DNA from: Dehalococcoidia bacterium | GTDB taxonomy: Bacteria > Chloroflexota > Dehalococcoidia > DSTF01 > WHTK01 | Assembly (NCBI GenBank): GCA_965197795.1 | Contig: OZ240228.1 | Location: 813,128 to 877,127, forward strand | Length of the DNA: 64,000 nucleotides | Direction: 5' to 3' | Shown here: in pieces, positions 1 through 16,553 of the stretch | How the letters are laid out: every line of letters starts with the position of its first letter | Position numbering within the stretch: the first letter of the stretch is position 1 | Translations under genes and position numbers: made by a program | Notes under the pieces: generated by a model | What the model was told of the DNA's origin: nothing | Database searches by the model: none | The model's input: only the letters and a program-made list of their open reading frames with translations

Positions 1-939
1 GCCGAGGCAGTCGAAGACCGCGGTGCGCGCGTAGTTATTGAGCGGTAGCTCCGCCAGCGCGAGCACGGATCGGCCCGCTGGCGTCTCGCTGAGCGGTGTA
101 CCCGGCAGCGGCGAGACCGGTATGCCGGCGCTTTGCAGGGCGAGGGCGAGGACGCCACGGTACGAAGCGTCGGCGCCGTGCAAGACGGCGATCTCGTGCA
201 GCCCGATGCCGGCTTCGAGCGAGTGAAGGACCTCGCGCGCTGCCTCACGCGCCTCGCTGGCAGGGTCCGGGGCGAGGACGAAGGCGGTCTCAGGCGAGGT
301 TGCGGGCGTTTCGAGCTGTTTGAAACGGGACGAGCTCGCGACCCGGCGCAAGGCCTTGAGCAGCGCGTCGGCGCCGGCGCTAAGCGCACCCGGAGGCAGG
401 ACGTAGATGTCTCCCATGTCGTTGATCACCGGGGAGCCGCCACGCGACACCACCTCCGTCGCGGCGTCGAAGAGGTCTTCTTCGTCGTAGAACGACGCGG
501 TCTGGGCGCGAAAGATGGCGTAAAGGCGCGTGACCTCCGGGAGCAGGCCGCTGTCGAGGCGGCTGCGAACTTCGTCGGGACGGAAGCCGCCTCGGCGAAG
601 CCGGGTAAAGCTCTGTCGTGGCACGCGCGCGAAGCTGGTGAGGTCGGAGACCTCCGCGAGGTCGGCGCGAGCCTCGTGCGCGATCTGGCCGGCAAGGTAA
701 TCGCCGATCGGCCGGGCGAGCGGCGATCGGCCCTGACGCGCCAGGGTGGCGGCACCGAGGAGCTCGGCGATGCGAGGCAGCGTCTCGAAACGGACGCCGG
801 CGAAGGGGCCGATCTCGGCGAGCTGGCGGCGGAGATGTATGGCCGCGACGTGCGAGGGAACGATGACAGTCGTGGGCGCCAGAGGATCGTCGCGCCTCGC
901 GCGTGCGATGGTCCGAAGGGCGGCTAATGCGGCGGGCAT
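1..939 (-). CDS. AddB/AdnA-like double-strand-break repair helicase-nuclease subunit; N-terminal part only, the gene continues beyond the window start
   Basis: Manual minus-strand translation from ATG at 939 gives MPAALAALRTIARARRDDPLAPTTVIVPSHVAAIHLRRQLAE..., open to position 1. This resembles the degenerate helicase N-terminus of AddB/AdnA. It is absent from the ORF track because no stop falls inside the window. Confidence 0.45.
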   Translation of the reverse strand, partial: MPAALAALRTIARARRDDPLAPTTVIVPSHVAAIHLRRQLAEIGPFAGVRFETLPRIAELLGAATLARQGRSPLARPIGDYLAGQIAHEARADLAEVSDLTSFARVPRQSFTRLRRGGFRPDEVRSRLDSGLLPEVTRLYAIFRAQTASFYDEEDLFDAATEVVSRGGSPVINDMGDIYVLPPGALSAGADALLKALRRVASSSRFKQLETPATSPETAFVLAPDPASEAREAAREVLHSLEAGIGLHEIAVLHGADASYRGVLALALQSAGIPVSPLPGTPLSETPAGRSVLALAELPLNNYARTAVFDCLG

Positions 940-1147
940 CAGACCGGCAGCATAATGGGAATCGTCGCACGCGAAAAGACGCGTGACGTTTCGGACAAAC
1001 TACCGAATCACGCTTCCTGCATTCGCCGCGTAAACTACAGGGCGAAGCATCGAATCGAATCGAGACAGTGAGCATAGCCAACCCCGCGAATCCCCCGACC
1101 CCGCAAGAGGGCTTCGACGGCGCCTGGGACCGCGCAGGAACCGGCCC

Positions 1148-1732
1148 GTGGTCATAGAGGACGCACGGATTAAGCGCGCCCGGGAAGGTGACCTCTCGGC
1201 GTTCAACGAGCTGGTCATCGAGTACCAGTCCCTTACGGTCAATCTCTGCTTACGGATGCTGGGCCAGCGGCAGGCGGCGGAAGATGCGGCGCAGGAGGCG
1301 TTCATCAACGCCTGGCGCAGCGTTGGCAACTTCCGCGGCGATTCGTTTCGGGCCTGGCTGCTGCGCATCGCTGCCAATCTGTGCCGCGACGAGCTGAGAC
1401 GACGCGGCCGGCGGCCCTCGTCATCGCTGGATACGGCCCTGGAGGCAGGCATGCCGGATCCGCCGGATGACGAACCGTTGCCCGAGGAAAGCGCGCTCTC
1501 CTCGGAGTTGCGCGACAACCTGGAAGTGGCGCTGGCCGAGCTGCCGGAGGAGCAGCGCGTCGCCATCATGCTGTGCGACGTCGAGGGACTCGACTACGCC
1601 GAAATCGCTGTGACGATGAAGACGTCGTTGGGTACCGTGAATTCACGCATCGCCAGGGGGCGGATGCGGATGCGCGAAGTGATGCTGAGACAACCGGAAC
1701 TTCTTCCGACGCGATTTCGTCAAGGAGGTTAG
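1148..1732 (+). CDS. ECF (sigma-70 family, RpoE-like) RNA polymerase sigma factor
   Basis: Sigma-70 region 2 (FNELV, AAQEAFINAWR) and region 4 (LPEEQRVAIMLCDVEGLDYAEIA) motifs are present. The gene ends with a TAG stop. Confidence 0.85.
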   Translation: MVIEDARIKRAREGDLSAFNELVIEYQSLTVNLCLRMLGQRQAAEDAAQEAFINAWRSVGNFRGDSFRAWLLRIAANLCRDELRRRGRRPSSSLDTALEAGMPDPPDDEPLPEESALSSELRDNLEVALAELPEEQRVAIMLCDVEGLDYAEIAVTMKTSLGTVNSRIARGRMRMREVMLRQPELLPTRFRQGG

Positions 1733-1734
1733 AG

Positions 1735-2583
1735 ATGCAGAGCATGACCTGGTTCCGACGCAGCGCTCACTTGGAGAACGAGCTGTCCGCTTATGTGGAC
1801 GGCGAACTGAGTGAGCGTGCCCGCCGTGCAGTGGAGACGCACCTGGCGACCTGTGAGGCGTGTTCGGTGGTGCTCCAAGAGCTACAGGACACGAAATCAC
1901 TGCTGAGCCAGCTGCCGAAGTTGGAGCCGCGTCGCTCCCTGGCCCTGGGGCCGGAGTTCGCCATCGAGCGAAGGGTGGCGGCGCCGCGGCGCACGTCGTT
2001 TACATTCGCCCCGGCGGTGGCGCTGACCGTGCTGGTGGCACTGCTCTTCGTCGACGCGCTTGATTCGAGGGACGGCTCCAGCCAGGAGGGCGCGTCAAAC
2101 GTCGCGGACACGACGGCGGCGTTTGACCTGGCGCAGCGGACGGAAGCCAGCGCCGGCCTGGCGGCCGAGCCGACAAAGGCAGGAGACGACGAACGCACGT
2201 TGGGTGCGGCGGAATCCGCCGTTCAGCAAGACGGTACGGCGGGCGCCATCGACTCGGCTGCGGGCATAGCGCGCGATGACGCGCCAGCCGCCGCAGCCGG
2301 GGGCGCGTTGGCTCAGCTGGCGCAAGACCCCACGTCAGAGCCAGAAGCGGCGGCGGTTTCGCCAACCGAGGTTGCTCCCGAGGTTGCGACCGGCGGAGCC
2401 AGCGGTGCTGCTGCTGAATCGACGTTGGAGGCGCCGCAGGAATTGAGCCCACTGGCAGGTCCCGAAGACTCTTCCGGCGGCGTGTCCACCCTTCGCATGC
2501 TGCAGGTAGTCGCGGCGCTGGCGTTCGTCGCGTCGCTACTGGCCGTGTTCTTGCCGCGAATCATGGGAAGACAGGAAAGGTAA
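1735..2583 (+). CDS. anti-sigma factor (zf-HC2 zinc finger plus one TM helix, Ala/Gly-rich extracytoplasmic tail)
   Basis: ATG at 1735 lies 8 nt after an AGGAGG RBS. Motifs: LSAYVDGELS...HLATCEACS. A TM segment AVALTVLVALLFV is present. It sits immediately downstream of the ECF sigma gene. Confidence 0.7.
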   Translation: MQSMTWFRRSAHLENELSAYVDGELSERARRAVETHLATCEACSVVLQELQDTKSLLSQLPKLEPRRSLALGPEFAIERRVAAPRRTSFTFAPAVALTVLVALLFVDALDSRDGSSQEGASNVADTTAAFDLAQRTEASAGLAAEPTKAGDDERTLGAAESAVQQDGTAGAIDSAAGIARDDAPAAAAGGALAQLAQDPTSEPEAAAVSPTEVAPEVATGGASGAAAESTLEAPQELSPLAGPEDSSGGVSTLRMLQVVAALAFVASLLAVFLPRIMGRQER

Positions 2584-2592
2584 CCAAACAAG

Positions 2593-3330
2593 ATGAAACC
2601 CAAGGCTTTTCTAATCACGCTCGTGGCGGGATTGGCCCTTCTGGCCGTGGCATGTGGCGACGGCGACACCTTCGTCACGTCCGGCGTCTCCGGTCAGAAC
2701 GGCGTCAGCGGGTCCGGCACCGGCACGGCCGTCGGCGAACCGGACGTGATGGTGCTCAACGTCGGCGTTTCGGTGGAGCGTGAGAGCATCGCTCAGGCGC
2801 GTGAGGATGCTGCCAGCGCCGAGGCGGCCGTGATCGACGCGCTCAAAGACAATGGCGTCGATGAGGACGACATTCAGACCGTGCAGTTCAGCATCAGCCC
2901 GCGGTACAACTTCTCGCGCCTCGACAACGAAAGAGAGATCGTCGGTTACGTGGTGAGCAACGTCGTGACGGCAAAGGTGCGTGACCTGGACAAGGCCGGC
3001 GACGTGCTCGACGCGGCGACGTTGGCCGGTGGCGACGACGCCGTGGTGCAGGGCATCTCGTTCAGCATCGATGACCCGACGGAGCTGCGGGCGCAGGCCC
3101 GGGAAGAGGCCGTGAAGAACGCGCGCGAGCAGGCTGCACAGCTGGCAAGTCTCGCGGGCGCCAACCTCGGCCGACTGATCTCGATCTCGGAGAGCAGCTT
3201 CTCCCCGATCTTCGAGCGATCGATTACAGGCGGCATTGGTGGAGGGGCAGCAGACGTGGTTCAGACGCCGATCGAGGCCGGTCAGCTAGAGATCAGGGTC
3301 ACCGTAAACGTCCTGTATGCCGTCAACTAG
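2593..3330 (+). CDS. SIMPL-domain (DUF541) lipoprotein
   Basis: Signal peptide with lipobox LAVAC. The region VQFSISPRYNF...GYVVSNVVTAKVRDLDKAGDV...ARE.A..NAREQA is typical of SIMPL / 26 kDa periplasmic immunogenic proteins. Confidence 0.75.
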   Translation: MKPKAFLITLVAGLALLAVACGDGDTFVTSGVSGQNGVSGSGTGTAVGEPDVMVLNVGVSVERESIAQAREDAASAEAAVIDALKDNGVDEDDIQTVQFSISPRYNFSRLDNEREIVGYVVSNVVTAKVRDLDKAGDVLDAATLAGGDDAVVQGISFSIDDPTELRAQAREEAVKNAREQAAQLASLAGANLGRLISISESSFSPIFERSITGGIGGGAADVVQTPIEAGQLEIRVTVNVLYAVN

Positions 3331-3342
3331 CCAAGGGCCGGA

Positions 3343-3384
3343 CGCATAGAAGAAGGCAGCGTTCAACGCTGCCTTCTTCTATGC
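3343..3384. terminator. rho-independent terminator hairpin (12-bp stem GAAGAAGGCAGCG/CGCTGCCTTCTTC, 5-nt loop) followed by a T-rich tract
   Basis: Perfect inverted repeat directly after the SIMPL stop codon, followed by tatgccctttt. Confidence 0.55.
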
Positions 3385-3446
3385 CCTTTTCGCCTCGTCG
3401 CGTAGAATCCGGCTAAATAAGATTGCGGGGGCCAAGCTACGTCCGT

Positions 3447-4073
3447 CCTGAGCGACCGCAGCATCCGAGAAGAAATCGACGCCGGACGATTAGTCATCGA
3501 TCCGTGGGAGGATCGCTTCCTGCAGCCGGCCAGCATCGATATGCGCCTTGGCGACAAGGCACTGGTGTTCCGAAATCACCGCGAATCGGTCACCGACGTG
3601 AAGCGAGACATGTCCCACCTCACGGAGGAAGAGGACATCGACGAACTAAAGCCGTTCGTCCTGCACCCGGAGAGTTCATTCTCGCAGCGACGTTCGAGAG
3701 CGTCCGCATTCCCGACAACATCGTGGGCCGGCTGGACGGAAAAAGCTCCCTGGGACGGCTCGGCCTGATCGTCCATTCGACCGCCGGCTTTGTGGACCCT
3801 GGGTTCGAAGGGACGATCACCCTGGAGCTCACCAACATCTCGAATCTTCCGATCACGCTCTACGCGATGATGCCGGTGTCTCAGATATCGTTCATGTACC
3901 TGTCGACGCCGGCGGAGAAGCCGTACGGCGGCAATCGCTCGAAGTACCAGGGTCAGCGCGGTCCGCAGCCGAGCCGATACCACTTGAACTACCTGCAGCC
4001 AGGCTTCCCGCAGCATGGGGATAGACCTCTGGCTCCTCGACGTCAGGGACGGCGCGGCAGCGGCGACAAATGA
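3447..4073 (+). CDS. dcd: dCTP deaminase (Dcd) with an apparent -1 frameshift (missing G in a GGG run near 3670) and no ATG start (CTG at 3447)
   Basis: N-terminus [45 protein letters not shown]...KPFVLHP in one frame. Then [56 protein letters not shown]...[12 protein letters not shown] in the +1 frame. The junction is cacccgg|agagttc, where cacccgggagagttc is expected. Confidence 0.7.
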
Positions 4074-5179
4074 CCGAGCCCTCCGGTTTGATGCGACAGG
4101 CGCTCGACCTGGCGCAACAGGCCCACGGATGGAGCAGCCCGAACCCATGGGTCGGCGCGGTGCTAGTCAACGCCGGACGCATCGTGGGGCAGGGCTACAC
4201 GCGCCCGCCGGGCGGCCCGCACGCGGAAATCGTGGCGTTGGATGAGGCCGGTGACGCCGCGCGTGGTGCGACCCTCTACGTTACGCTGGAGCCGTGCAGC
4301 CACCAGGGCCGCACGCCGCCTTGCACGCTGGCGTTGGTCGCGGCGGGCGTCACGAAGGTCGTTTACTCCCTCGAGGACCCCGACGCGCGCGTCTCGGGCA
4401 ACGGGCACCGGCAGCTCGAGGAAGTCGGCGTCGAGGTTGAAGTCGGGGATGGCGCCGAGTCCTCGGCGCGCTTGCTGGAGGCGTACATCAAGCACCGCAA
4501 GACGGGCCTGCCATTTGTCATCGCGAAGTATGCGGCCAGCATGGACGGGCGCATCGCCGCTGCTAGCGGCGACTCGCGCTGGGTTAGCGGACCGACGACG
4601 CTGCGCTGGACGCACGATGAGCGGACGAAGGTGGACGGGATCATGGTCGGCGCCAGCACCGTCGTCGTCGATGACCCGCAGCTGACGGCGCGTCCCGGCG
4701 GCGAGCTGGCCGAACGCCAACCGCTACGCATCGTGCTGGACAGCACGGGGCGTATCTCAGCCGGCGCCGGCGTCCTTTCGGCCGTGGCGAAGACGCTTGT
4801 CGCGACCACGGCGCGTTCGTCCAGCGAATGGCGCCGGTCGATCGAGGACGCCGGAGCCGAAGTGCTGGTGCTGGACGAGGATCAGGATGGCCGCGTCCCC
4901 TTGCCTCAGCTGCTGCGCAAACTCGGCTCACGCGGCGTCGTTACTCTGTTGCTGGAAGGCGGCAGCGTGCTGCTGGGGTCGTTCTTCGACCAGCGTTTGG
5001 TCGACAAAGTGACGGCCGTGATCGCGCCGATGGTCATCGGGGCGGCGGACGCGCCGGCGGCGATCGCGGGACGCGGGGCGCAGGTCATGAGCGAGGCGGT
5101 CCATCTCTCTGATGCCACGGTCGATCGGTTGGGCGATGACGTGCTGCTGACAGGTTATCCCGACTGGTCGCAGGCTTGA
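4070..5179 (+). CDS. ribD: bifunctional diaminohydroxyphosphoribosylaminopyrimidine deaminase / 5-amino-6-(5-phosphoribosylamino)uracil reductase
   Basis: Deaminase zinc motif HAEIVAL...[14 protein letters not shown] followed by the reductase domain ([25 protein letters not shown]). Start overlaps the dcd stop (ATGA). Confidence 0.9.
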
Positions 5180-5200
5180 CGCACCGTTGCACGCACGATC

Positions 5201-6015
5201 CTATCGCGGAGACGTCCCTTCGCTCTGCTTTCGCGCCCGCAGCGAGAACATGAAAGGCAGCTGTAGCGGGTTGTCCGGCAGCTCGAAGTAGCCGTCGGCG
5301 CGTTTCTGCATCTGAGGCAGCCTGGGGAAGCAGCCGTACGTGAACTCGTGCAGGCAGTCGAGCTGCAGGCCGGCGTCGATCGCGGCACCGACGATCTCGC
5401 CGAGGCCATGCGCGAAGTCGTAGGAGCGCTTGTGGTCCAGCTGGACGCGATCGTCGGCGTAGCTGTGGCCGGAGTCGTCGGCCAGCGGCTGCGCTCCGAG
5501 GTAGGGAAACACGAGCCCGATCTCGTTCTCGTCCAGCATGTCGGCCACGGGATGGCCGTCGATGAGGTAGAAGACGCCACCGGGCTTGAGGAAGCCCGCC
5601 GCGATCTGGAACCAGGTTGGCAGGTCGGGCAACCAGCAGAGCACGCCCTACGAGGCGAAGACGACGTCAAAGCTGCCTGACAGGACTTCCGACAGTTTGT
5701 AGACGTCCGTCTCGATGAAGCGGGCGTCGAGTCGCAGCTCCTGGCCAGGGAGCGCGCGGCAGCGATAGCCGGGGCCGAGAAGTCGACGCCGGTCACAAGA
5801 GCGCCTTCGCGGGCCCAGGACAGCGTGTCCATGCCGAAGTGGCACTGCAGATGCAGCAGCGTCTTGCCGGCTACTTCTCCCAGCTCACGGCGTTCGATTG
5901 GCAGCAGGCTGGATCGTCCCGCCTTGAAGGACGCGACGTCGTAAAAATCGGACGCCAGGTGAATCGGGACACGAGCGTCCTAGTTGCGGCGGTTGGCGTC
6001 GATGAACTGGTTCAT
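5201..6015 (-). pseudogene. class I SAM-dependent methyltransferase pseudogene with two in-frame TAG codons at expected Trp positions and a -1 frameshift
   Basis: Minus-strand translation reads MNQFIDANRRN*DARVPIHLASDFYDV...LLHLQCHFGMDTLSWAREGALVTGVDFSAPAIAAARSLAR, then a frameshift at about 5740, then ELRLDARFIETDVYKLSEVLSGSFDVVFAS*GVLCWLPDL...LKPGGVFYLIDGHP. The TAGs are at 5982-5980 and 5650-5648. The frameshift is a G missing from agggag. Confidence 0.7.
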
Positions 6016-6223
6016 GTCGAGAATTGTAGGTGAACGAGCTGCTTCGGCCGACGCAGCGCCGGCTGCTCGCTGCTCGCAATGGAGTTCGTTGCCCTTTGCG
6101 AGCCATCCCGCGCCAGCGGGAGGCGTGGCAATCTCGTCGCTTCATCGGCCTACGGTCGTTGCCCGTTCGCGTCGATGCCCTTACCATCAGCTTCACGACT
6201 AGACATAGCGTGGCGGGGGCAAC

Positions 6224-6838
6224 GTGTTCACGGGCATCGTCGAAGAAGTGGGGACGGTCCGATCGATCGGGCCGGGGCGTCTGGTGATCAACGCCAAGCG
6301 GGTCACATGGGGCACCAATCTGGGCGACTCCGTGGCCGTGAACGGCTGTGATCTAACCGCCGTCTATCTGGACGAGGATGGCTTCCATGCCAACGTCATC
6401 GAAGAGACCTACGCGCGCACCAACTTAGGCGACCTCAAGGTCGGCGATCGAGTCAACCTGGAGCGCGCCTTGACCCTGGCTGGACGGATCGGCGGTCACC
6501 TGCTGCGCGGCGTGATCGAGCACACGGGGACCTTGAGGTCGTTCGAACCACAGGAGCACTCGATTGTAGCCCGGTTCAACGCGCCGTCGGAGATCCTGCG
6601 CTACGTCATCGTGAAGGGACCGATCGCGGTCAGCGGCGCATCGCTGACGGTAATAGATAAGGACGACGAGACGTTCTCCGTAGGGTTGATACCGTTCACC
6701 CAGGAGCACACCAACCTGATGAATTTGAACCCTAACGATAGGGTAAACTTGGAATCAGACATCATCGCCCGCTACGTCGAGCAGCTGCTCGACGAGCGAT
6801 ACGGCGAAGGGGATCCTCGCTCGGCGGAAAGGCTCTGA
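6224..6838 (+). CDS. ribE: riboflavin synthase alpha subunit
   Basis: MFTGIVEEVGTV...AVNGCDLTAV...GHLLRGVIEHTG...SLTVID is the duplicated lumazine-binding fold. Confidence 0.85.
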   Translation: MFTGIVEEVGTVRSIGPGRLVINAKRVTWGTNLGDSVAVNGCDLTAVYLDEDGFHANVIEETYARTNLGDLKVGDRVNLERALTLAGRIGGHLLRGVIEHTGTLRSFEPQEHSIVARFNAPSEILRYVIVKGPIAVSGASLTVIDKDDETFSVGLIPFTQEHTNLMNLNPNDRVNLESDIIARYVEQLLDERYGEGDPRSAERL

Positions 6839-6840
6839 GT

Positions 6841-8115
6841 ATGATGAGGGCGCAGGTGACGCGGGCCGTCTCGCGCGACGACAAAGGCGAGAGCGTGATG
6901 GCCACGGTGGAGGAAGCGATTGAGGAGTTTCGCGCCGGCCGCTTCGTGATCATCACCGATGACGAAAGCCGCGAGAACGAGGGCGACCTCGTCATCGCGG
7001 CGGACTTCGCGACGGCGGAGAGCATCAACTTCATGGCCAAATACGGCCGTGGCCTGATCTGCATGCCGATGACGGGCGAGCGACTGGACGAGCTGGGCAT
7101 CCCGATGCAGGTCAGCCCACAAGACAATGCATCGCTGTTCGGGACCGCCTTCACCGTGTCGGTTGAAGCGCGCCGCAACGTGACCACCGGCATCTCCGCG
7201 GCGGACCGCGCCGAGACGGTTCGCGTCCTGATCGATCCAAGCACGAAGAGGCACGATCTGGCGATGCCGGGCCATCTCTTCCCGCTGCGCGCCAGAGAAG
7301 GCGGCGTCCTGGTTCGCGCCGGCCAGACGGAAGCGGCGGTGGACCTCGCCAAAATGGCAGGTCTGTACCCGGCCGGCCTGGTCTGCGAGATCATGAATAC
7401 CGACGGCACGATGGCGCGCCTGCCGGACCTGAAGCGGTTTGCCCAGCGTCATCATCTCAAGATCGTCAGCATCGAGCAGATGATTGGCTATCGTCAGCAG
7501 CATGAGCGCCTTGTCGAGCGCGTGACGGAGACCGTGATACCGACGATCCATGGCAGCTGGAAGGCGATCGCATATCGCAGCATCGTCGACCCGGACGAGC
7601 ACGTGGCGCTGGTGATGGGTGATATCGACCACGGCGAGCCAACGTTGGTGCGCATGCACAGCCAGTGCGTGACGGGGGACGTGTTCCAAAGCATGCGTTG
7701 CGATTGCGGCGAGCAGCTCGAGAAGGCGATGCAGCTGATCGGCGCCGAGGGACGGGGCGTCATCGTCTATATGCGGCAGGAAGGTCGTGGCATAGGCTTC
7801 CACAACAAGCTGCGCGCCTATGCGTTGCAGGATGACGGCCTCGACACCGTCGAGGCGAACGAAGCGTTGGGCTTTGAAGCGGACCGCCGCGATTACGGAA
7901 TAGGCATGCAAATCCTGCAAGACCTTGGTCTGCAGAAGATCCGGTTCCTGACCAACAACCCGAGCAAGCGCCTCGGCCTGGAGGGCTACGGCCTCGAAAT
8001 GGTCGAACGCGTGCCGATCATCGTCGAGCCGAACGAATTCAACGCCCAATACCTTCAGATCAAGGCAGAGAAGCTGGGTCACCGCTTCGACGACGACCCG
8101 ATGAACATCGACTAG
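6841..8115 (+). CDS. ribBA: bifunctional 3,4-dihydroxy-2-butanone-4-phosphate synthase / GTP cyclohydrolase II
   Basis: DHBP synthase motifs (DDESRENEGDLVIAAD, LICMPM) are followed by GCH-II motifs (CVTGDVFQSMRCDCGEQL, YMRQEGRGIGFHNKL). The true start may be the ATG at 6898. Confidence 0.9.
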   Translation: MMRAQVTRAVSRDDKGESVMATVEEAIEEFRAGRFVIITDDESRENEGDLVIAADFATAESINFMAKYGRGLICMPMTGERLDELGIPMQVSPQDNASLFGTAFTVSVEARRNVTTGISAADRAETVRVLIDPSTKRHDLAMPGHLFPLRAREGGVLVRAGQTEAAVDLAKMAGLYPAGLVCEIMNTDGTMARLPDLKRFAQRHHLKIVSIEQMIGYRQQHERLVERVTETVIPTIHGSWKAIAYRSIVDPDEHVALVMGDIDHGEPTLVRMHSQCVTGDVFQSMRCDCGEQLEKAMQLIGAEGRGVIVYMRQEGRGIGFHNKLRAYALQDDGLDTVEANEALGFEADRRDYGIGMQILQDLGLQKIRFLTNNPSKRLGLEGYGLEMVERVPIIVEPNEFNAQYLQIKAEKLGHRFDDDPMNID

Positions 8116-8118
8116 TCA

Positions 8119-8589
8119 ATGACGCGCACCCTCCTCGAGGATCTCGACGGCTCCAACGTCAGCGTCGCTGTTGCCGTCGCTCGATTCAACACGCTGATCA
8201 CCGAACGCTTGCTGGTCGGCGCTCTGGAGGGGCTGGACGCGTTGGGCGTCGACGAGCAACGGCGTGTGGTCGCCTGGGCGCCAGGGAGCTTCGAGTTGCC
8301 GTTTACGGCGCAGCGACTGGCCGAGACGGGGCGCTACGACGCGGTGGTCTGTCTGGGCTGCGTGATCAAGGGGGAGACGGACCACAACGAGTACATCAAC
8401 CAGGCGACGGCCCTGGCGCTGCAGAACGTGGGCCGAGAGACCGGCGTCCCAGCGATCTTCAAGATCATCACGGCCGACACGCTTGAGCAGGCGCTGGCGC
8501 GCTCGGGAGAAGGCACGTCGAACTGGGGCTACGAGGGCGTGCAGACGGCCGTGATCATGGCAAACCTGCGGCGCAACCTGGTCGAGTAA
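8119..8589 (+). CDS. ribH: 6,7-dimethyl-8-ribityllumazine synthase
   Basis: VAVAVARFNTLITERLLVGA...GSFELPF...AVVCLGCVIKGET.H.EY is the classic RibH signature. Confidence 0.9.
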   Translation: MTRTLLEDLDGSNVSVAVAVARFNTLITERLLVGALEGLDALGVDEQRRVVAWAPGSFELPFTAQRLAETGRYDAVVCLGCVIKGETDHNEYINQATALALQNVGRETGVPAIFKIITADTLEQALARSGEGTSNWGYEGVQTAVIMANLRRNLVE

Positions 8590-8607
8590 CGGGCCGCGAG
8601 ATCGTTC

Positions 8608-8988
8608 GTGTTACACGCGAGATTCCAGGTCGGCCAGAAGGCGTTCATCGAGAAGGACGGAGAGATCCTCGTGCTGTTCCGCCCGGAAGCGTTGTTCGAC
8701 TTTCCCGGCGGCCGGATCGACGAAGGTGAGCGAGACCTGGTGGCTGCCTTGCGACGAGAGGTGCGAGAGGAGACGACGTTGGAAGTCGAGGTGGGCGCTC
8801 CGTTCGCGACGTGGCTCGGACGTCAGGAGACAGTGTTTCTCGTAGGCTATCGCTGCCGCTACGTTTCGGGGGACGTCCGCCTCAGCGAAGAACACGTCGA
8901 TTTTCGCTGGGTGACGTCGGAAAGCTACGACAGCCTGGATGATGCCAGTGCTCCGTTCGAAGTGCTGCGACGCTACTTCGAGGGTTAA
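8608..8988 (+). CDS. NUDIX hydrolase
   Basis: Nudix-box-like GGRIDEGERDLVAALRREVREETTLEV. Confidence 0.6.
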   Translation: MLHARFQVGQKAFIEKDGEILVLFRPEALFDFPGGRIDEGERDLVAALRREVREETTLEVEVGAPFATWLGRQETVFLVGYRCRYVSGDVRLSEEHVDFRWVTSESYDSLDDASAPFEVLRRYFEG

Positions 8989-9052
8989 CCGAGACGTAAC
9001 CGGAGCTGACGGGGGTGTGTGCTATCATCCCCAGGTATCCCGGAGGGGCCTT

Positions 9053-9409
9053 TTGATTGACACCGAGCCGACCGAACAGCCGGAGCTGGACGATGGCGAC
9101 TGGCAGAGCCAGGGAGAATCTCCCGACCCCAGCGCGCTAAGCGCGCTGCACCTGGCGCATCGCGTCGTCGACAAGTTTCCTGAGCTGACCAAGCGCTATC
9201 AGAAGTTCATCGGTACCGCGGCGGTCGTTTCGTCGGCACTGATCGTGCTGGCGAGCATCGCGGTGGCACGGCGCCTCAACCGCGGCGAGTCGGCGGAGGA
9301 TATCCTCAACTCGATTACGTCCGAGGAAATCGAGAACGCTGGCAAGGAGAAGCCGGAGAAGCCGGGACAAGCCGACAAGAGCGATGAGAAGCGCCGCTTC
9401 TTCCACTAA
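9053..9409 (+). CDS. hypothetical small membrane protein (start uncertain)
   Basis: TTG at 9053 follows GGAGGGG. One hydrophobic helix (AAVVSSALIVLASIAVA) and a charged Lys/Glu-rich tail. Confidence 0.35.
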   Translation: MIDTEPTEQPELDDGDWQSQGESPDPSALSALHLAHRVVDKFPELTKRYQKFIGTAAVVSSALIVLASIAVARRLNRGESAEDILNSITSEEIENAGKEKPEKPGQADKSDEKRRFFH

Positions 9410-9460
9410 CCGACAGCCGCGACGCCCCTGCATTCAACTGTCAATCGGACCGTAGTCACC

Positions 9461-10267
9461 CTACCCGGCGTTGACGGGGTGATGAATCGCGCCCCATTCG
9501 GAATCCGGCAGGCGCAGAAACTGCCAGCCGGCTGGCGCCTCGGGTAGGCCCAGGTCAGGAGACGCCTGCCAAGACGTCCAGGTATCGTCGAAGGGCGGCT
9601 TGGCGGCCTCGATCAGGCCGATGACCTCGCGGACGTGGGCGTGCAGGAGGTCGGCTTCTTCTCGCGTGTAAATGCCTCGGGCGACGAAGTGCTCCATCTG
9701 GTCGGCGTCCTTGATCGCGTAGCTGCGATCCGGCCGCACGACGATGTCCAGCACTTCGTCGGTGACGTCGAAGCCAAGCTCGGTGCCCTGGAATGGTGCG
9801 ATGATGTCGACTTTCCAGCCGTAGAAGTGGCCGGTGACTGGTTCGGCTGGGGACGGCTTGTCATCGAACAGCCGGCCGCTACCGACCCGACTCAGCTCTA
9901 CGTCGTAGCCGTGTGAGGGCTCACCGAGGAAGAAGTAGCGGACCCAGGGAGCCGGCCCGCTGCCGGATTCGAAGAACAGGTCGACGTGATAAGGCTTGCC
10001 GGGAAAGAGGAGCCTCAGCGAGTCGCCGATGGTCACGCGCGGCTGGCGCATACGCTGCTCCACGATGTCCCAACGCCAGAGCTTCGTGCCCTGCGGCAGG
10101 TAGAGCGCAACGATTTCGTCGCTATCCTCGACAACCGAGTACGGCCAGCCGGGCAGGTTGGCGATAGTGTCACCCCTGATCGCGGTGTAAACGCGAGTCG
10201 AGCGCGTTTGCAGCGGATCGCGCAGGATGATGTTGTCGCCTGGTTGCCAGCCGTCGTGCATATCCAA
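9461..10267 (-). CDS. DUF402 family protein (FomD/YgaC-like nucleoside diphosphatase fold)
   Basis: 268-aa ORF with DUF402-like core (WKVDIIAPFQGTELGFDVTDEVLDIVVRPDRSY...). Assigned from recalled family features, not a search. Confidence 0.5.
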   Translation of the reverse strand: MDMHDGWQPGDNIILRDPLQTRSTRVYTAIRGDTIANLPGWPYSVVEDSDEIVALYLPQGTKLWRWDIVEQRMRQPRVTIGDSLRLLFPGKPYHVDLFFESGSGPAPWVRYFFLGEPSHGYDVELSRVGSGRLFDDKPSPAEPVTGHFYGWKVDIIAPFQGTELGFDVTDEVLDIVVRPDRSYAIKDADQMEHFVARGIYTREEADLLHAHVREVIGLIEAAKPPFDDTWTSWQASPDLGLPEAPAGWQFLRLPDSEWGAIHHPVNAG

Positions 10268-10313
10268 AGTCTAGGCCCGAATGCAGAAATGTCGTAGGCC
10301 GCTTGACTTCTTA

Positions 10314-10323
10314 GAACATGTTT
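10314..10323. promoter_or_regulatory. candidate LexA/Cheo-type SOS box (GAACATGTTT) between a -35-like TTGACT (10304-10309) and the dinB start
   Basis: GAAC-N4-GTTt palindrome with one mismatch to GAAC-N4-GTTC, about 20 bp upstream of dinB. DinB is classically LexA-regulated. Confidence 0.4.
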
Positions 10324-10343
10324 GCTATTGCTGATGCGCGGTG

Positions 10344-11567
10344 ATGCGGCAGATATTCCACGTAGACCTGGACGCCTTCTTCGTGGCCGTGGAGCAGGCG
10401 CGCGACCCGTCACTCCTCGGCAAGCCGGTCATCGTGGGCGGCGACCCGAGCGGGCGAGGCGTCGTAGCGACGGCCTCGTACGAAGCGCGCGTCTTCGGCG
10501 TTCACTCGGCGATGCCGTTGCGCACGGCGAAACGTCTGGCGCCGCAGGCGATCTTCCTGCGCGGCACTTTCAAGGAGTATCAGCGAGTATCGAGCGCCTT
10601 CCACGCGATTCTCAGCCAATACAGCCCGCTGGTGGAGTCGGGTGGTCTGGACGAGGCATATATCGACATAACGGGCTGTGAGCCCCTCGTCGGCACACCC
10701 GATCAGGCGGCTGCCACGATGAGGCGCCGTATTCAAGAGGAGCTTCATATCGCGGCCTCGGTGGGCATCGCGACCAGCCGGCTGGTCGCGAAAGTGGCCT
10801 CGGACGCTGCCAAGCCGGACGGCGTCAAACGCGTGCCGGAAGGTGAAGAGGCGGCGTTCCTGGCGCCGATGCCGCTGAGTGCGCTGCCGATGCTGGGACC
10901 GTCTATGGAGAAGAAGCTGGCACAGCTCGGGTTGAGCACGCTGGGCCAGCTGGCGTCTCTACCGGTCTCAACTCTGGAGGGCCTGTTCGGAAGACACGGC
11001 GCGGTGATCTGGCAGCGCAGCCACGGCATCGATGCGTCGCCGGTAGGCGGCGAACCACACTCGCGATCGATCAGCCGCGAGGGTACTTTCGGCTCAGACG
11101 TCAGCGACCCCGAGCACCTGCGCGCGGTCTTGCGCGCTTTCAGCGAGAGCGTCGGCTCGCAGCTCCGGCAGCAGGGAAAGCGGGCTCGTACGGTCACTTT
11201 GAAGCTGCGCTATGAGGACTTCACGACCCTGTCGCGTAGCAAGACAATGGCCCGGCCTGTCAGCAGCAACGAGGCGATTTTCGAGGCGGCGGATGCATTG
11301 TTGGCAAGGATTCGTCAGACGGAGAAGCGCCCGGTGCGGCTGATCGGCGTTGGGGCCAGCGGGCTGGTCGAGGACGTCGTGCAGTTGAGCCTGGAGCCAT
11401 CGGACGAGACGAAGTCGGAATCGCTCAGCGAGGCGTTCGACCGGGTGCGGTCGAAGTACGGCACGCGCAGCCTGCAGACCGGCCGGACCGCCTTCGACGG
11501 CGCAACCCGGAGCGATGACGCGGTGTTCGACCGCAGCACCGGCCTGTCGTCCCAGATGGACCACTGA
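10344..11567 (+). CDS. dinB: DNA polymerase IV (Y-family)
   Basis: MRQIFHVDLDAFFVAVEQ...PVIVGG...SYEAR.FGV...GLDEAYID...SVGIA. RLVAK.ASD..KP is canonical DinB. Confidence 0.85.
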   Translation: MRQIFHVDLDAFFVAVEQARDPSLLGKPVIVGGDPSGRGVVATASYEARVFGVHSAMPLRTAKRLAPQAIFLRGTFKEYQRVSSAFHAILSQYSPLVESGGLDEAYIDITGCEPLVGTPDQAAATMRRRIQEELHIAASVGIATSRLVAKVASDAAKPDGVKRVPEGEEAAFLAPMPLSALPMLGPSMEKKLAQLGLSTLGQLASLPVSTLEGLFGRHGAVIWQRSHGIDASPVGGEPHSRSISREGTFGSDVSDPEHLRAVLRAFSESVGSQLRQQGKRARTVTLKLRYEDFTTLSRSKTMARPVSSNEAIFEAADALLARIRQTEKRPVRLIGVGASGLVEDVVQLSLEPSDETKSESLSEAFDRVRSKYGTRSLQTGRTAFDGATRSDDAVFDRSTGLSSQMDH

Positions 11568-11647
11568 GCCGTGCTTCTGGTAGCGCGAGGGCCTAAAATG
11601 GTTCTTGATTCGAGCTCGAAGGGTCGCGGTTTACGAGGGGAAATGTA

Positions 11648-12298
11648 GTGGAAGCCACTCCAGGCTCGTCACGCAGCCGCAGCGGAAGCTGGGTTAGCTT
11701 GCGGCGCGCTTGCGAGATTCTCGGCGCAGATGAGTCCACGCTGCGGCGCTGGGCTGACGCCGGAAGGCTGCGGATCTACCGGACGCCTGGAGGGCATCGG
11801 CGCTTCTCACTCGGTGACCTGGAGAGCATGGTGTCGGGTGAAGGCCGGCATCATGGCGCCGAGGAAGTGGAGCGACTTGCGGTCGCGCGGATCAGAAAAC
11901 AGCTGCAGCGGGCGCGAGAGGACGATCAGGGCTGGTACGGCCATATCCCAGAAGAGAGCCGGCAGCGGCTGCGCGACCTTGGCAGACGCCTGGTCGAGAT
12001 GGCCAGCGAGTACATGGAGAAGGGGACGCGGCGCAGCAGCCTGCTCGATGAAGCCCTTGACGTCGGCCGCGAGTACGGCCGCATCCTGATCGAGGCCGGA
12101 TTGCCGCTGCCCAGCGCCGTCGGCGCCTACATCGGCTTCCGCAAGACGATTGATGAGACGACGAACCAGACAGCTCTGCGTGAGTCGCTGCCGGTGGAGG
12201 AAGCGCTGTCCGCATCAGGGCACGTGCACGCGCTCGGCGACCAGGTGCTCCTGGGGATGACGGCGGCGTATGAGGCGCTGTCGGCTAACGGGGAATGA
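11648..12298 (+). CDS. helix-turn-helix (MerR/excisionase-type) DNA-binding regulator with an uncharacterised C-terminal domain
   Basis: N-terminal VSLRRACEILGADESTLRRWADAGRL..YRTPGGHRRF is an HTH_17-like motif. Confidence 0.5.
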   Translation: MEATPGSSRSRSGSWVSLRRACEILGADESTLRRWADAGRLRIYRTPGGHRRFSLGDLESMVSGEGRHHGAEEVERLAVARIRKQLQRAREDDQGWYGHIPEESRQRLRDLGRRLVEMASEYMEKGTRRSSLLDEALDVGREYGRILIEAGLPLPSAVGAYIGFRKTIDETTNQTALRESLPVEEALSASGHVHALGDQVLLGMTAAYEALSANGE

Positions 12299-12672
12299 CG
12301 TGACGAACGGACGATCGCGCCGCGGCCGGGGTTCGATGAACGGCAGAGAGCGAAAGCTTGTCAGCGACCTCTCGCAGCCGAACTCAATGATGGCTGGGCG
12401 GACGAGGGAGATAGGGCAAAGAGCCCGAAAGGACCTCGAGAACCAGATCAACGCGGAGCCGTTCGAAGAACTGACGGATTCCGAGCTGAATGACTGGGAG
12501 CGGGATCAGGCCATCGCCAGAGAACGCATGAGGCGCGAGGGTCTGATCTGAGCTGATTTAGGTAATCGGGACAATCACGCAGGACGGATTGGAAGTTGTT
12601 CGACGCGAGCCAGCTTCCAGAATAGTCGGCTTCTTCTTAGCTTCTAGACGCGACTCACGATAAGCTAAGCGG

Positions 12673-13524
12673 GTGAACCAGGGCGCGATAATCGAAGCCG
12701 TGGCGTTCGACTGCTACGGCACGCTGATCGACTTCGGCGATGAGGCTTACATTCGCGCCTATGGCACCATCTGCCGTGATCAGGGCCTTTCGCTCACCGG
12801 CGAGGTGCTGTATCAGAAGTGGATGGAGATCTGGCGCCGGCTGGTCGATGACGGACGTCTGGCGGCCACAACCGACGCTGTTCCGGGGCCCAATACGCCG
12901 GGCGCGCTGAGTGAGACGGTCCAGATCCCACCGCATCAGCAGCACCACGCCGCCAGGAGCCGCAATCGCCCGATCGACGGGCCCGTGCCGCCGTTCCGTA
13001 GCTACCGCGAGGAGTGGACGGAGCATTTCGCGTTGTGCTTTGAGGAGCTCGGCGTGCAGGGCGACGCGGCGGCCGGCCACGAGCATCTGCGCCGAATGCT
13101 GGCGGAGGCGCCTGCTTTCGAGGAGGCGCTACGCACCGTCGAGACCATCGGCCGCAAGCTACCCGTGGCAATGATGTCGAACGCGGATGACGACTTCCTG
13201 TTCCCCGCGTTGGGCCGAAACGCCTTGACCTTCCCCGTCGTCCTGTCCTCCGAAGAAGCGCGCGCCTACAAACCACACCGGTCGATCTTCGAGCTACTTA
13301 GCGAGCGCCTGGGCGTTGCGCCGCAGAACATCCTCTACGTCGGAGATAGCCTGGTCGCCGACGTGAACGGTTCGAGGAACGCCGGCATGCGCGCTGCCTG
13401 GATCAACCGATCTGTTGATAGCAAGGACGCCAGCGACTGGGCCGGTATGGGACGTGATACGGCGGAGCCCGACTGCGAGGTCAGGCGCCTCGACGGGTTG
13501 ATCGAAGCGCTCGAGCTGCGATGA
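12673..13524 (+). CDS. HAD-superfamily hydrolase
   Basis: Motif I AVAFDCYGTLID and motif IV YVGDSLVADVNGSRNAGM. Confidence 0.65.
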   Translation: MNQGAIIEAVAFDCYGTLIDFGDEAYIRAYGTICRDQGLSLTGEVLYQKWMEIWRRLVDDGRLAATTDAVPGPNTPGALSETVQIPPHQQHHAARSRNRPIDGPVPPFRSYREEWTEHFALCFEELGVQGDAAAGHEHLRRMLAEAPAFEEALRTVETIGRKLPVAMMSNADDDFLFPALGRNALTFPVVLSSEEARAYKPHRSIFELLSERLGVAPQNILYVGDSLVADVNGSRNAGMRAAWINRSVDSKDASDWAGMGRDTAEPDCEVRRLDGLIEALELR

Positions 13525-14810
13525 AGCGAAAGACGGAACGTTCGCGGCAGGTCTTCGAGGAGGCCCAGCGTTATATGCCAGGCGGCGTCAACAGCCCCGT
13601 GCGCTCCTTCCGAGGCGTCGGCGGCGATCCCGTTGTCGTGGCGTCCGCAGCGGGTGCTCGGATCACTGACGCCGACGGCAATTCGTATATCGACTACTGC
13701 GGCTCCTGGGGACCGCTGATCCTGGGGCACGCGGACCGCGAGGTCGTCGATGCGGTCCAGCGAGCCGCCGCCAGAGGCTTGACCTACGGCGCCGCGACCG
13801 AGGCAGAGGTGGAGCTGGCTCGGCTCGTCTGCCAGTACGTGCCGTCGATCGAGATGGTGCGCTTTGTAAGCTCCGGTACAGAGGCGACGATGTCAGCGAT
13901 CCGCGTGGCGCGCGGGCATACCGGCCGCAGCAAGATCGTCAAGTTCGAGGGCTGCTACCACGGTCACGCCGACGGGCTGCTGGTCCAGGCCGGCTCCGGC
14001 GTCGCCACGCTCTCGTTACCGGATAGCGCAGGCGTGCCAGCCTCGTACGCAGGCGAGACGCTGGTAGCGCCCTACAACGATATCGAGGCCGTCAGCGCTT
14101 TGTTCGAGCGCTGGGGCGATGAGATCGCGGCGGTGATTGTCGAACCGGTCGCGGCGAACATGGGTGTGGTGCCGCCCGCCGCCGGTTTCCTCGAGATGCT
14201 GCGCACCTACTGCAGCGATAACGGGGCGCTGCTGATCTTCGACGAGGTGATCACGGGCTTTCGAGCCGGGCTCGGCGGGTACCAGGCGTATGCCGGCGTC
14301 ATGCCGGACCTCACTTGCCTGGGCAAGGTGGTGGGGGGCGGGATGCCCGTTGGGGCCTATGGCGGCCGGCGCGAGGTCATGCAGCAGGTGGCGCCCTTGG
14401 GCCCCGTCTACCAGGCGGGCACGCTTTCGGGCAACCCGTTGGCGATGGCGGCAGGCATCGCGACCCTGACACGACTGGCGCAACCAGACTTCTACGAGAC
14501 GCTGGACGCGAAAGCATCACGACTGGCGGATGGCATAGCGGCGGCGATTGCCCGCCATGAAGTTCCAGCAAGGCTCAGCAGGGTTGGCTCGATGATGACG
14601 CTTTTCTTCGCCGCAGAAGCCCCTCATGACTACGCGAGCGCACGCCAAGCCGACGCTCAGGCATACGCTCGCTTCTTCCACGCGTTGCTGGACGCCGGAG
14701 TGTACTTCCCGCCCTCGCAGTTCGAGGCGGCGTTCGTGTCGGCGGCGCACAGCGATTCGGACATCGACACGACGATCGCTGCGGTCGACGCTGCCCTTGG
14801 GGTGGACTGA
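13521..14810 (+). CDS. hemL: glutamate-1-semialdehyde 2,1-aminomutase
   Basis: YMPGGVNSPVR..R.VGG.P......G.R..D.DGN.Y.DY..SWGP...GH, with SGTEA and LIFDEV..GFR motifs. Confidence 0.9.
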   Translation: MKRKTERSRQVFEEAQRYMPGGVNSPVRSFRGVGGDPVVVASAAGARITDADGNSYIDYCGSWGPLILGHADREVVDAVQRAAARGLTYGAATEAEVELARLVCQYVPSIEMVRFVSSGTEATMSAIRVARGHTGRSKIVKFEGCYHGHADGLLVQAGSGVATLSLPDSAGVPASYAGETLVAPYNDIEAVSALFERWGDEIAAVIVEPVAANMGVVPPAAGFLEMLRTYCSDNGALLIFDEVITGFRAGLGGYQAYAGVMPDLTCLGKVVGGGMPVGAYGGRREVMQQVAPLGPVYQAGTLSGNPLAMAAGIATLTRLAQPDFYETLDAKASRLADGIAAAIARHEVPARLSRVGSMMTLFFAAEAPHDYASARQADAQAYARFFHALLDAGVYFPPSQFEAAFVSAAHSDSDIDTTIAAVDAALGVD

Positions 14811-15292
14811 TGGCGCGTTGGGCCGACGTAGAAGCGGCGGACGCCGGCTTCGCGGCCGCGGTGCGGTCTCTGTTCGACGCGCACGTCCACAAGGTCATGG
14901 CGACCATACGGGCCGACGGCTCGCCTCGAGTCAGCGGTATTGAAGTGACGTTCTCCGATGGCGACATTTGGTTCGGGTCGATGGCAGACGCGCGAAAGCT
15001 GGACGACCTGACGCGCGACCCGCGCCTCGCGCTGCACTGTACGCCGGACGACCCTCCGCCGGATCCGACCCTGTGGAGCGGCGATGCGAAGCTATCCGGG
15101 CGCGCTGAGGAGGTGGACGACACGGAGCGCCTGAAGTCGATGGGTGACGGTGGCGATGGCGCGTCTACCGGCCGCTTGTTCCACGTCGACCTAAGCGAGG
15201 TCGTCCTGACCAGGGTGGGGGACCCGCCAGACCATCTTGCCGTGACGCTCTGGACGCCGGAGGGCGGCATCAAACGTCTCCAGAGCCACTGA
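14810..15292 (+). CDS. pyridoxamine 5'-phosphate oxidase family (PPOX class, probably F420/FMN-binding) protein
   Basis: 160-aa ORF with PPOX split-barrel-like segments (MATIRADGSPRVSGIEVTF.DGDIWFGS). Weak assignment. Confidence 0.5.
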   Translation: MARWADVEAADAGFAAAVRSLFDAHVHKVMATIRADGSPRVSGIEVTFSDGDIWFGSMADARKLDDLTRDPRLALHCTPDDPPPDPTLWSGDAKLSGRAEEVDDTERLKSMGDGGDGASTGRLFHVDLSEVVLTRVGDPPDHLAVTLWTPEGGIKRLQSH

Positions 15293-15419
15293 CGGAGGGC
15301 TTCCCGCGGCGTTCGCGGCAGGGCTTGGACGGTTGATCGATTTTCGCTTGTCCGCGACTTCGAGCCGGTCTATACTTCCCTCAATCTTTAGTAAATTGCT
15401 TAGCTACGTGAGCGAATAA

Positions 15420-16553
15420 ATGAAAGTCACCTGCACTCAGGAAGCCCTTTCGCGCGGACTCAGCGTTGTTGGCAGGGCGGTCGCTGCACGCAGCACCCTG
15501 CCGATTACGTCTCACGTTTTGATCACGACTGAGGATGACGGGAAGCTACGCCTCTCGGCCACCAATCTCGAGATCACGATGAACTACTGGATCGACGCGG
15601 AGATAGGCGAGCCGGGTTCGGCGGCGGTGCCGGCGCGACTGCTGACCGACTTCGTAAACACGCTGCCGTCCGACCGAATCACGTTGGAGCTGTCGCCTCG
15701 GTCTCGACAGCTTAAGGTCGAGTGCGCGCGTAACGAGGCCCAGATCAGCGGCCTCGACGCGGAGGATTTCCCGCCCACGCCGGTCGTCCAGGACGGCATC
15801 GAAGTCCAGTTGGAGGCGAAAGGCCTGCGTCAGGCGATCGCTCAGACCGTGTTCGCAGCGGCAACGGACGATTCGCGGCCCGTGCTCACCGGCGTCGACA
15901 CGAAATTCGACGACAACCTGCTGACGCTGGCGGCCTCGGACGGATTCCGGCTTTCCGTCTACAAGCTGCCCCTGGCAGCATCGGTGGAAGCAACAGAGAT
16001 CGTCGTGCCATCACGCGCGCTCTCAGAACTGAGCCGTCTGCTGGCCGAGCAAGACGAAGCGGTGACGCTGCGAACGAACGCGGCGAAGACGCAGGTGCTG
16101 TTTCGCTTGGCCAACGCCGAAATGGTGGCGCAGCTGATTCAAGGCACGTTCCCCAACTTCAACCAGCTGATTCCGCCTAGCTCCACCAGTCGCGCCGTGG
16201 CGGAGGTGGGCGAATTCTTGCGCGAGACGCGGACGGCCTCGGTGTTCGCCCGCGACGGTTCTGGGATTGTGCGTCTCGTGGTTACGCCAGGGCAGGGTGT
16301 GACGCCCGGCAAGATCGTAATCTCGGCACGCGCCGAAGAAGTGGGCGATAACGAGGGCGAGATCGACGCGGCCGTCGAAGGCGAGGGCGTGAAGATCGCG
16401 TTCAACGGCAAGTACTTGCAAGACGTCCTGCAGGCCCTCGAGACCGGGCAGCTCGCGATGGAGACGACGGGTCCCTCCAGCCAGGGCGTCTTCAAGACGC
16501 TAGGAGACGACAACTACGTCCACGTCATCATGCCGATGTTCGTTCAATGGTGA
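15420..16553 (+). CDS. dnaN: DNA polymerase III beta subunit (sliding clamp)
   Basis: 377 aa with three-domain clamp signatures (LRLSATNLEI, TGVDTKFDDNLLTLAASDGFRLS, IAFNGKYLQDVLQAL). Confidence 0.85.
   Translation: MKVTCTQEALSRGLSVVGRAVAARSTLPITSHVLITTEDDGKLRLSATNLEITMNYWIDAEIGEPGSAAVPARLLTDFVNTLPSDRITLELSPRSRQLKVECARNEAQISGLDAEDFPPTPVVQDGIEVQLEAKGLRQAIAQTVFAAATDDSRPVLTGVDTKFDDNLLTLAASDGFRLSVYKLPLAASVEATEIVVPSRALSELSRLLAEQDEAVTLRTNAAKTQVLFRLANAEMVAQLIQGTFPNFNQLIPPSSTSRAVAEVGEFLRETRTASVFARDGSGIVRLVVTPGQGVTPGKIVISARAEEVGDNEGEIDAAVEGEGVKIAFNGKYLQDVLQALETGQLAMETTGPSSQGVFKTLGDDNYVHVIMPMFVQW

Follow-up and report, generated by a model that had tools for sequence, protein, structure and literature searches.

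Unitary pseudogenes that arise through a nonsense mutation and then decay neutrally are known from many free-living as well as host-restricted bacteria. The methyltransferase (MTase) gene described here, situated among the riboflavin biosynthesis genes of a Dehalococcoidia bacterium, has in common with them a single founding stop codon at a conserved residue, to which missense, nonsense and frameshift changes were added later, homology over its full length to intact orthologs in the same position, and decay that is polymorphic among strains, together with an independent loss in a sister lineage. We see no substantive difference from the known cases; the only particular of this locus is that its lesions can be ordered in time by strain-resolved metagenomes. 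From the comparison of sequences, a class I SAM-dependent methyltransferase gene has very probably become a unitary pseudogene here, through recent and stepwise decay.

Described enzymes with the same Rossmann-type core include UbiG, CypM, ToxA and NNMT, whereas two parts of the MTase, the NRxNWD helix at its N-terminus and its last 120 residues, are specific to its own family. In contrast to class I small-molecule methyltransferases, the copy in the window (the whole 64-kb stretch of DNA that was analysed) is predicted to be non-functional. Of these enzymes, ToxA serves Burkholderia glumae as toxoflavin N-methyltransferase, in a pathway that splits off from riboflavin synthesis; its substrate is an azapteridine derived from the riboflavin pathway.

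Organisation of the locus

The source is an uncultured bacterium whose genome is about 3.0-3.2 Mb in size with 62% G+C. Relatives of the DnaN encoded in the window, at 95% identity and below, bear the label Dehalococcoidia bacterium wherever they are named. By three-frame translation and Pfam matches, the MTase pseudogene (positions 5201-6015 of the window, minus strand) is a remnant that retains the full length of the gene, 271 codons and a stop codon, with one base missing. The ribD gene (4070-5179, plus strand, 369 aa; from the ORF list, with Pfam dCMP_cyt_deam_1 and RibD_C detected on the ortholog) is convergent with the pseudogene, with 21 bp between the two stop codons. On the other side, a divergent intergenic region of 208 bp (6016-6223) separates the pseudogene start from ribE, ribBA and ribH (6224-8589, plus strand), all intact according to the ORF list and Pfam.

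No riboswitch or sigma-70 promoter was recognisable in 6016-6223, and a search of the whole window at Rfam gathering scores, like one of 3200-6400 at E<=1, detected no FMN riboswitch near dcd-ribD or ribE-ribBA-ribH. When 5000-6400 was scanned for promoters and terminators, nothing exceeded shuffled expectation, and no convincing terminator was seen around the MTase. The sole match to an RNA element near the MTase, mir-3926 on a hairpin at 3340-3386, was rejected as spurious (30 bits, where the gathering score is 82). This hairpin is located on the plus strand directly 3' of the stop codon of the SIMPL-domain gene, and is probably a transcription terminator.

On the minus strand the MTase frame opens with ATG at 6015, reads MNQFIDANRRN and runs into a TAG at 5982-5980. 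Past this stop, the frame continues as DARVPIHLASDFYDV...SLA; a one-base shift is then needed near 5742-5745, and the shifted frame reads ELRLDARFIETD...VVFAS, a TAG at 5650-5648, GVLCWLPD... and the natural TAG stop at 5203-5201. As read from the sequence, the first in-frame ATG, GTG or TTG after the codon-12 TAG (TAG12) is that of Met62, which lies past SAM-binding motif I (LLHLQCHFG, residues 53-61). No uninterrupted reading frame contains this motif, owing to TAG12 and, in the window, also to the -1 frameshift and to a TAG at codon 123 (TAG123).

Gene callers place ORFs of 147 aa and 225 aa (window, 5155-5832, minus strand), 179 aa (L084:2458-2997) and 210 aa (L001 and L086) on the pseudogene, the 210-residue ORF beginning at Met62. 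The proper label for the locus is a pseudogene, not two or three short hypothetical ORFs, and such fragmentary or spurious calls represent an annotation hazard.

Elsewhere in the window, a 340-aa amidohydrolase (60728-61750, minus strand) falls into a 63-member cluster (>=90% identity) that includes one protein labelled Acidimicrobiales; either its conservation is very wide or it has undergone horizontal transfer. A 248-aa ORF (45690-46436, plus strand) forms a singleton cluster and was seen only in this genome. Exact look-ups of proteins from the rest of the window left eight of ten without a record, probably as a matter of start-codon choice.

Identity of the ancestral enzyme

The repaired 271-residue protein exceeds the cutoffs of four Pfam methyltransferase families, all spanning residues 50-155: Methyltransf_11 (54.2 bits; cutoff 21.2), Methyltransf_12 (54.0; 30), Methyltransf_25 (51.7; 27) and Methyltransf_31 (45.5; 27). 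No NCBIfam model reached its cutoff, the best being UbiG with 33 bits against 103. Protein searches matched thousands of class I SAM-dependent methyltransferases of 265-272 residues. The best intact homologs (265-268 aa) are 76-78% identical over 97% of the length; the best reference-genome match among those listed is 56% identical, and the nearest of these reference-genome matches are Chloroflexota MAGs. The species itself was absent from the best 80 reference-genome loci listed.

PDB sequence matches were confined to the Rossmann core (UbiG, E = 1.8e-12; ToxA, 5jdz, E = 1.7e-8). For the fold, the intact ortholog P0004 was modelled with AlphaFold in place of the window sequence (pLDDT 91.9, pTM 0.90); with Foldseek the model matched many small-molecule MTases, among them UbiG, CypM, ToxA, CcbJ and NNMT, at a probability of 1.0, with TM 0.5-0.6 and identity of 13-23%. 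Judged by these matches and by the predicted fold, the ancestral gene is one for a small-molecule class I SAM-dependent methyltransferase.

The likeness to ToxA deserves attention. ToxA is among the top structural and PDB sequence matches, and the MTase, like ToxA, resides beside riboflavin-type biosynthesis genes. However, the match is no better than those to UbiG, CypM and NNMT, no other tox genes occur near the MTase, and a rib gene within 6 kb was found at none of the 80 best-listed distant homolog loci (reference genomes, 42-56% identity, many phyla). Similarity specific to ToxA beyond the generic fold, or family-wide rib/tox linkage, was not found in these comparisons, the linkage being limited to one clade. 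Kinship with ToxA is thus best taken as a lead from resemblance. By this analogy, the MTase might have acted on an intermediate of the riboflavin pathway or a flavin-like one, and its repeated recent loss might reflect a metabolic shift, or else the allele with TAG12 alone might be partly read through; we give such a reading only a slim chance.

Intact orthologs and a second loss in the clade

Intact MTase orthologs, 68-78% identical, are divergent to ribE with ribD on the opposite side in L002, L003, L087/L088 and L094. The short contigs L089 and L090 also encode an intact ortholog divergent to ribE, with ribD not identifiable there, and the L091-L093 contigs, fetched via DnaN, fall short of the MTase, L093 being a fragmented assembly. 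The presence of orthologs in the same slot, taken with the lack of rib linkage at the 80 distant loci, argues that this linkage was inherited within the clade and does not characterise the protein family as a whole. As conserved gene order indicates, the MTase already stood between ribD and ribE in the ancestor of the clade. The earlier note considered this placement unusual, which is correct for the wider family but not for the clade, where intact orthologs share it.

Sister lineages contain an additional gene, variable and for the most part unannotated, which resides between the MTase and ribD or, where ribD was not identifiable, on the ribD-distal side of the MTase (L003:7869-8747, L087:2086-2646, L089:3978-4721, L090:1778-2299 and L094:5090-5806). 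In L003, a Uma2-family gene also separates the MTase from ribE. These gene contents give the ribD/ribE gap the character of a small insertion spot, variable within the clade.

Two sister lineages, L094 and L095, were retrieved by RibE-anchored look-ups. The former encodes an intact 266-residue MTase with TGG at codon 12 and TAC at codon 123, and its rib genes are about 87% identical at the nucleotide level. In the latter (Logan, ERR14231558), RibE is 94% identical and the ribD-ribE gap measures only 650 bp. Its MTase (L095:6351-6910) matches over residues 1-140 at 86%, with W12 and Y123 intact, and resumes at residue 228 in another frame; the lesion is an internal deletion of 278 bp, out of frame and flanked by GGC microhomology. 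The N-terminal identity of the MTase to this species is higher in L095 (86%) than in L094 (76%), and the flanking rib genes are discordant with this, showing the reverse (82% against 87% nucleotide identity).

Lesions and their distribution among strains

Five sequences of the species were compared, falling into two sublineages: the window, L084 and L085 (sublineage W), and L001 and L086 (sublineage R). L001 is the locus on a 3.03-Mb circular metagenome contig, and encodes P0003 (210 residues, 98% identical). L084 is a 4x contig from another ENA assembly, and L085 a Logan assembly of run ERR13605531; a third assembly supplied L086, a contig of 749 kb. An exact-sequence cluster look-up lists three genomes of the species, and a 32-nt anchor across codon 12 had no matches when JGI metagenomes were scanned.

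The first nonsense mutation converts codon 12 from TGG (Trp) to TAG (5980-5982, minus strand) and was seen in L001 and L086 as well as in the window and L084. The residue is Trp in all 40 aligned homologs, and the codon is TGG in the outgroups L002, L003, L094 and L095. The -1 frameshift affects codons 91-92 (5743-5744, minus strand): aligned to L001 and L086, GGG on the plus strand has become GG, i.e., GCC CAG in the sense direction has become G-CC AG, and the deletion is common to the window, L084 and L085. The second nonsense mutation, at codon 123 (5648-5650, minus strand), changed TAC (Tyr) to TAG through C>G at 5648, the third base of the codon. At least 90% of the 40-sequence alignment has Tyr at this site, within the motif FAS-Y-GV; the codon is TAC in L001, L086, L002, L003, L094 and L095, and TAG in the window, L084 and L085.

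Four missense changes, all in the minus-strand frame, were found in sublineage W only: D14A (GAT to GCT, 5974-5976; sense position 41 is A in the outgroups and R strains), T185S (ACC to AGC, 5462-5464), F221C (TTC to TGC, 5354-5356) and F229C (TTC to TGC, 5330-5332). Y199D, a radical change at a site where Tyr is the consensus of the homolog alignment, occurs in L086 only.

These data confirm the main claim of the earlier note, that a real MTase pseudogene lies on the minus strand between ribD and ribE, since the lesions recur in at least two samples and intact syntenic orthologs exist. Its count of three independent disabling lesions in the window also stands, each being reproduced in independent assemblies, and so does the 1-nt deletion in a G run, seen against L001 at plus-strand 5743-5744. 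The proposal that both stops replaced Trp codons (TGG to TAG), with Trp expected at both sites in orthologs, is borne out at codon 12 but has to be corrected at codon 123, where the ancestral residue was Tyr; the G>A change placed at 5649 is in fact the C>G at 5648. Moreover, the three lesions are not equivalent: by their distribution among the strains, TAG12 is species-wide and came first, and the frameshift and TAG123 are later and belong to one sublineage.

Over window positions 1-15832 (15.8 kb), L001 is 99.3% identical to the window, with 103 substitutions and 7 indel bases. The coding differences comprise 40 synonymous and 44 nonsynonymous changes, and the enrichment at codon position 3 (43 of 84) indicates real divergence, apparently under purifying selection, and not sequencing noise. 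L084 and L085 differ from the window by only seven and four SNPs, respectively, with no indels; both contain TAG123, the MTase frameshift, T185S, F221C, F229C and the dcd frameshift, and L084, which also spans the MTase 5' end, has D14A and TAG12 as well. L086 groups with L001, the frameshifts in the ECF sigma and DUF402 genes being common to both.

The other indels of the region were as follows. The dCTP deaminase gene dcd (3445-4073) has a -1 frameshift (GGG to GG at 3668) in the window, which results in ORFs of 116 and 75 aa; it is shared by L084 and L085, and dcd is intact in the R strains and outgroups, where it overlaps the ribD start (ATGA). Intact in the window are the ECF sigma gene (1148-1732) and DUF402 (9461-10267), both of which have -1 deletions in L001 and L086 (at window positions 1299 and 10104). 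In L001 alone, a +2 insertion affects the N-terminus of the zf-HC2 anti-sigma gene (window position 1800). Four to five gene-disrupting indels per about 16 kb, between strains 0.7% apart, is an unusually high density.

Order of decay and selection

TAG12 was found in all four species sequences that cover codon 12 (window, L084, L001 and L086); its presence in every one of them, with TGG in all outgroups, places it first. The frameshift, TAG123 and the four missense changes are restricted to sublineage W, which also has one synonymous MTase change, with one more in the window alone. In L001 the MTase has TAG12 as its sole lesion in an otherwise clean 271-codon frame, identical to the inferred ancestor outside codon 12. 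The private changes of L086 are one synonymous substitution and Y199D, which argues that the copy of sublineage R is drifting too.

Across the species tree the MTase has accumulated six nonsynonymous and three synonymous changes and one frameshift, and the strain differences in ribE, ribBA and ribH amount to one nonsynonymous and six synonymous; on this pattern of substitutions, the latter genes are under purifying selection. The MTase ratio of 6:3 is not statistically different from the approximately 40:39 (nonsynonymous:synonymous) of the flanks, the counts being small, but its direction fits relaxed selection; taken by itself, the pattern of substitutions is compatible with neutrality as well as with weak constraint. 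When the differences between the window and L001 were polarised by the outgroup L002, the flanks gave 37:37 and the MTase 5-7:0, all on the window side. The 37:37 ratio is inflated by L001-private changes, which became separable once L086 was added: outside the MTase, 31 derived changes then fall on the W branch against 16 on the R stem. Given these branch lengths, the placement of all five to seven MTase changes on the W branch has P ~0.05-0.13, and residual selection on the allele with TAG12 alone was rejected as an explanation, the asymmetry not being significant at the 31:16 ratio.

The same asymmetry bears on whether TAG12 is leaky, i.e., whether the allele of L001 and L086 yields some full-length enzyme by near-cognate read-through and is under selection, so that only sublineage W truly lost the gene. 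Such a reading would account for the five to seven polarisable changes on the W branch with none on the R stem, and for an L001 copy equal to the inferred ancestor apart from codon 12. We nevertheless consider it improbable: the W branch is twice as long outside the MTase, Y199D in L086 is radical and hits a consensus Tyr, and the sister lineage L095 has deleted a third of the gene, which marks it as dispensable. Besides, read-through at a stop in codon 12 normally yields only a small fraction of full-length protein.

Several observations point to a recent loss under the preferred reading of stepwise decay. With distant homologs as the outgroup, relative-rate comparisons of the repaired MTase gave 11 unique changes against 12 for P0004 and 16 against 14 for P0001; there was no acceleration before the split, which argues that the loss is recent. 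The remnant has kept its full length, a coding-type GC3 (0.89) and a near-ancestral sequence, which suggests the same. Taken at face value, these figures mean that constraint was lost shortly before the sampled strains diverged (~0.7% nucleotide divergence).

Authenticity of the lesions and the meaning of TAG

It is very unlikely that the lesions are sequencing or assembly artefacts of a long-read metagenome and that the gene is intact in the organism. The frameshift does sit in a short homopolymer, and the frame-breaking indels in dcd, ECF sigma, DUF402 and anti-sigma genes by which the window and L001 differ looked at first sight like consensus errors. This suspicion of assembly error, raised by the reciprocal indels of the window and L001, was removed by L084, L085 and L086: all indels but one sort by sublineage and recur in independent assemblies, and indels that track lineage in this way are heritable mutations, not noise. 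TAG123 and the MTase and dcd frameshifts recur in L084 and L085, contigs with SNPs of their own and no indel differences, and recurrence of the W-sublineage lesions in a second sample speaks against assembly errors. Furthermore, TAG12 is present in four sequences, the window and those from three other assemblies, and two of the three lesions are substitutions, neither of them in an error-prone context.

TAG terminates the ECF sigma gene (1148-1732), ribBA, the SIMPL-domain gene, DUF402 and the MTase itself, and in ribBA it stands 3 nt ahead of the ribH start. Among 61 candidate ORFs in the window, the stop codons are TGA in 33, TAG in 16 and TAA in 12. Going by these gene ends, TAG is a normal stop and is not recoded, as the earlier note had held from the ECF sigma gene. 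That TAG is instead decoded (by an amber suppressor, as pyrrolysine or through a change of code), which would turn both TAGs into sense codons and leave the gene functional save for a frameshift that may be an error, is exceedingly improbable: two in-frame TAGs in one gene would fit it, and a suppressor may be encoded elsewhere in the genome, the 64-kb window having no tRNA genes in our scan, but conserved genes including ribBA end in TAG where their orthologs end, the frameshift is real, TAG123 is polymorphic within the species, orthologs have ordinary TGG and TAC at the two sites, and no single reassignment fits one TAG at Trp and the other at Tyr.

Discussion

Analysing the locus through its gains of lesions, a plausible trajectory emerges. 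The ancestor of the clade would have had the MTase between ribD and a divergent ribE. In the species ancestor, a change of Trp12 from TGG to TAG would have cut the protein to 11 residues. Re-initiation at Met62 would have given no active enzyme, since this residue is past SAM-binding motif I; TAG12 alone should therefore abolish the enzyme, as far as reading frames can tell. Sublineage W would then have drifted, acquiring D14A, the -1 slip in a short G/C run, the change of Tyr123 to TAG, T185S, F221C and F229C, and sublineage R would have retained TAG12 alone, with Y199D added in one strain. From the sequence we infer that no protein product is made, and any reason why the MTase became dispensable is likewise a matter of inference. 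No evidence was found at the MTase locus for recoding, programmed frameshifting or a regulatory role. This is ordinary gene decay, with no new biological mechanism.

The locus offers a tidy worked example of stepwise gene decay put in time order by strain-resolved metagenome assemblies. With such assemblies, single-base indels can be validated by following lineages across independent samples. In this Dehalococcoidia subclade, the MTase has been inactivated at least twice by unrelated lesions, which suggests that the enzyme is dispensable there.
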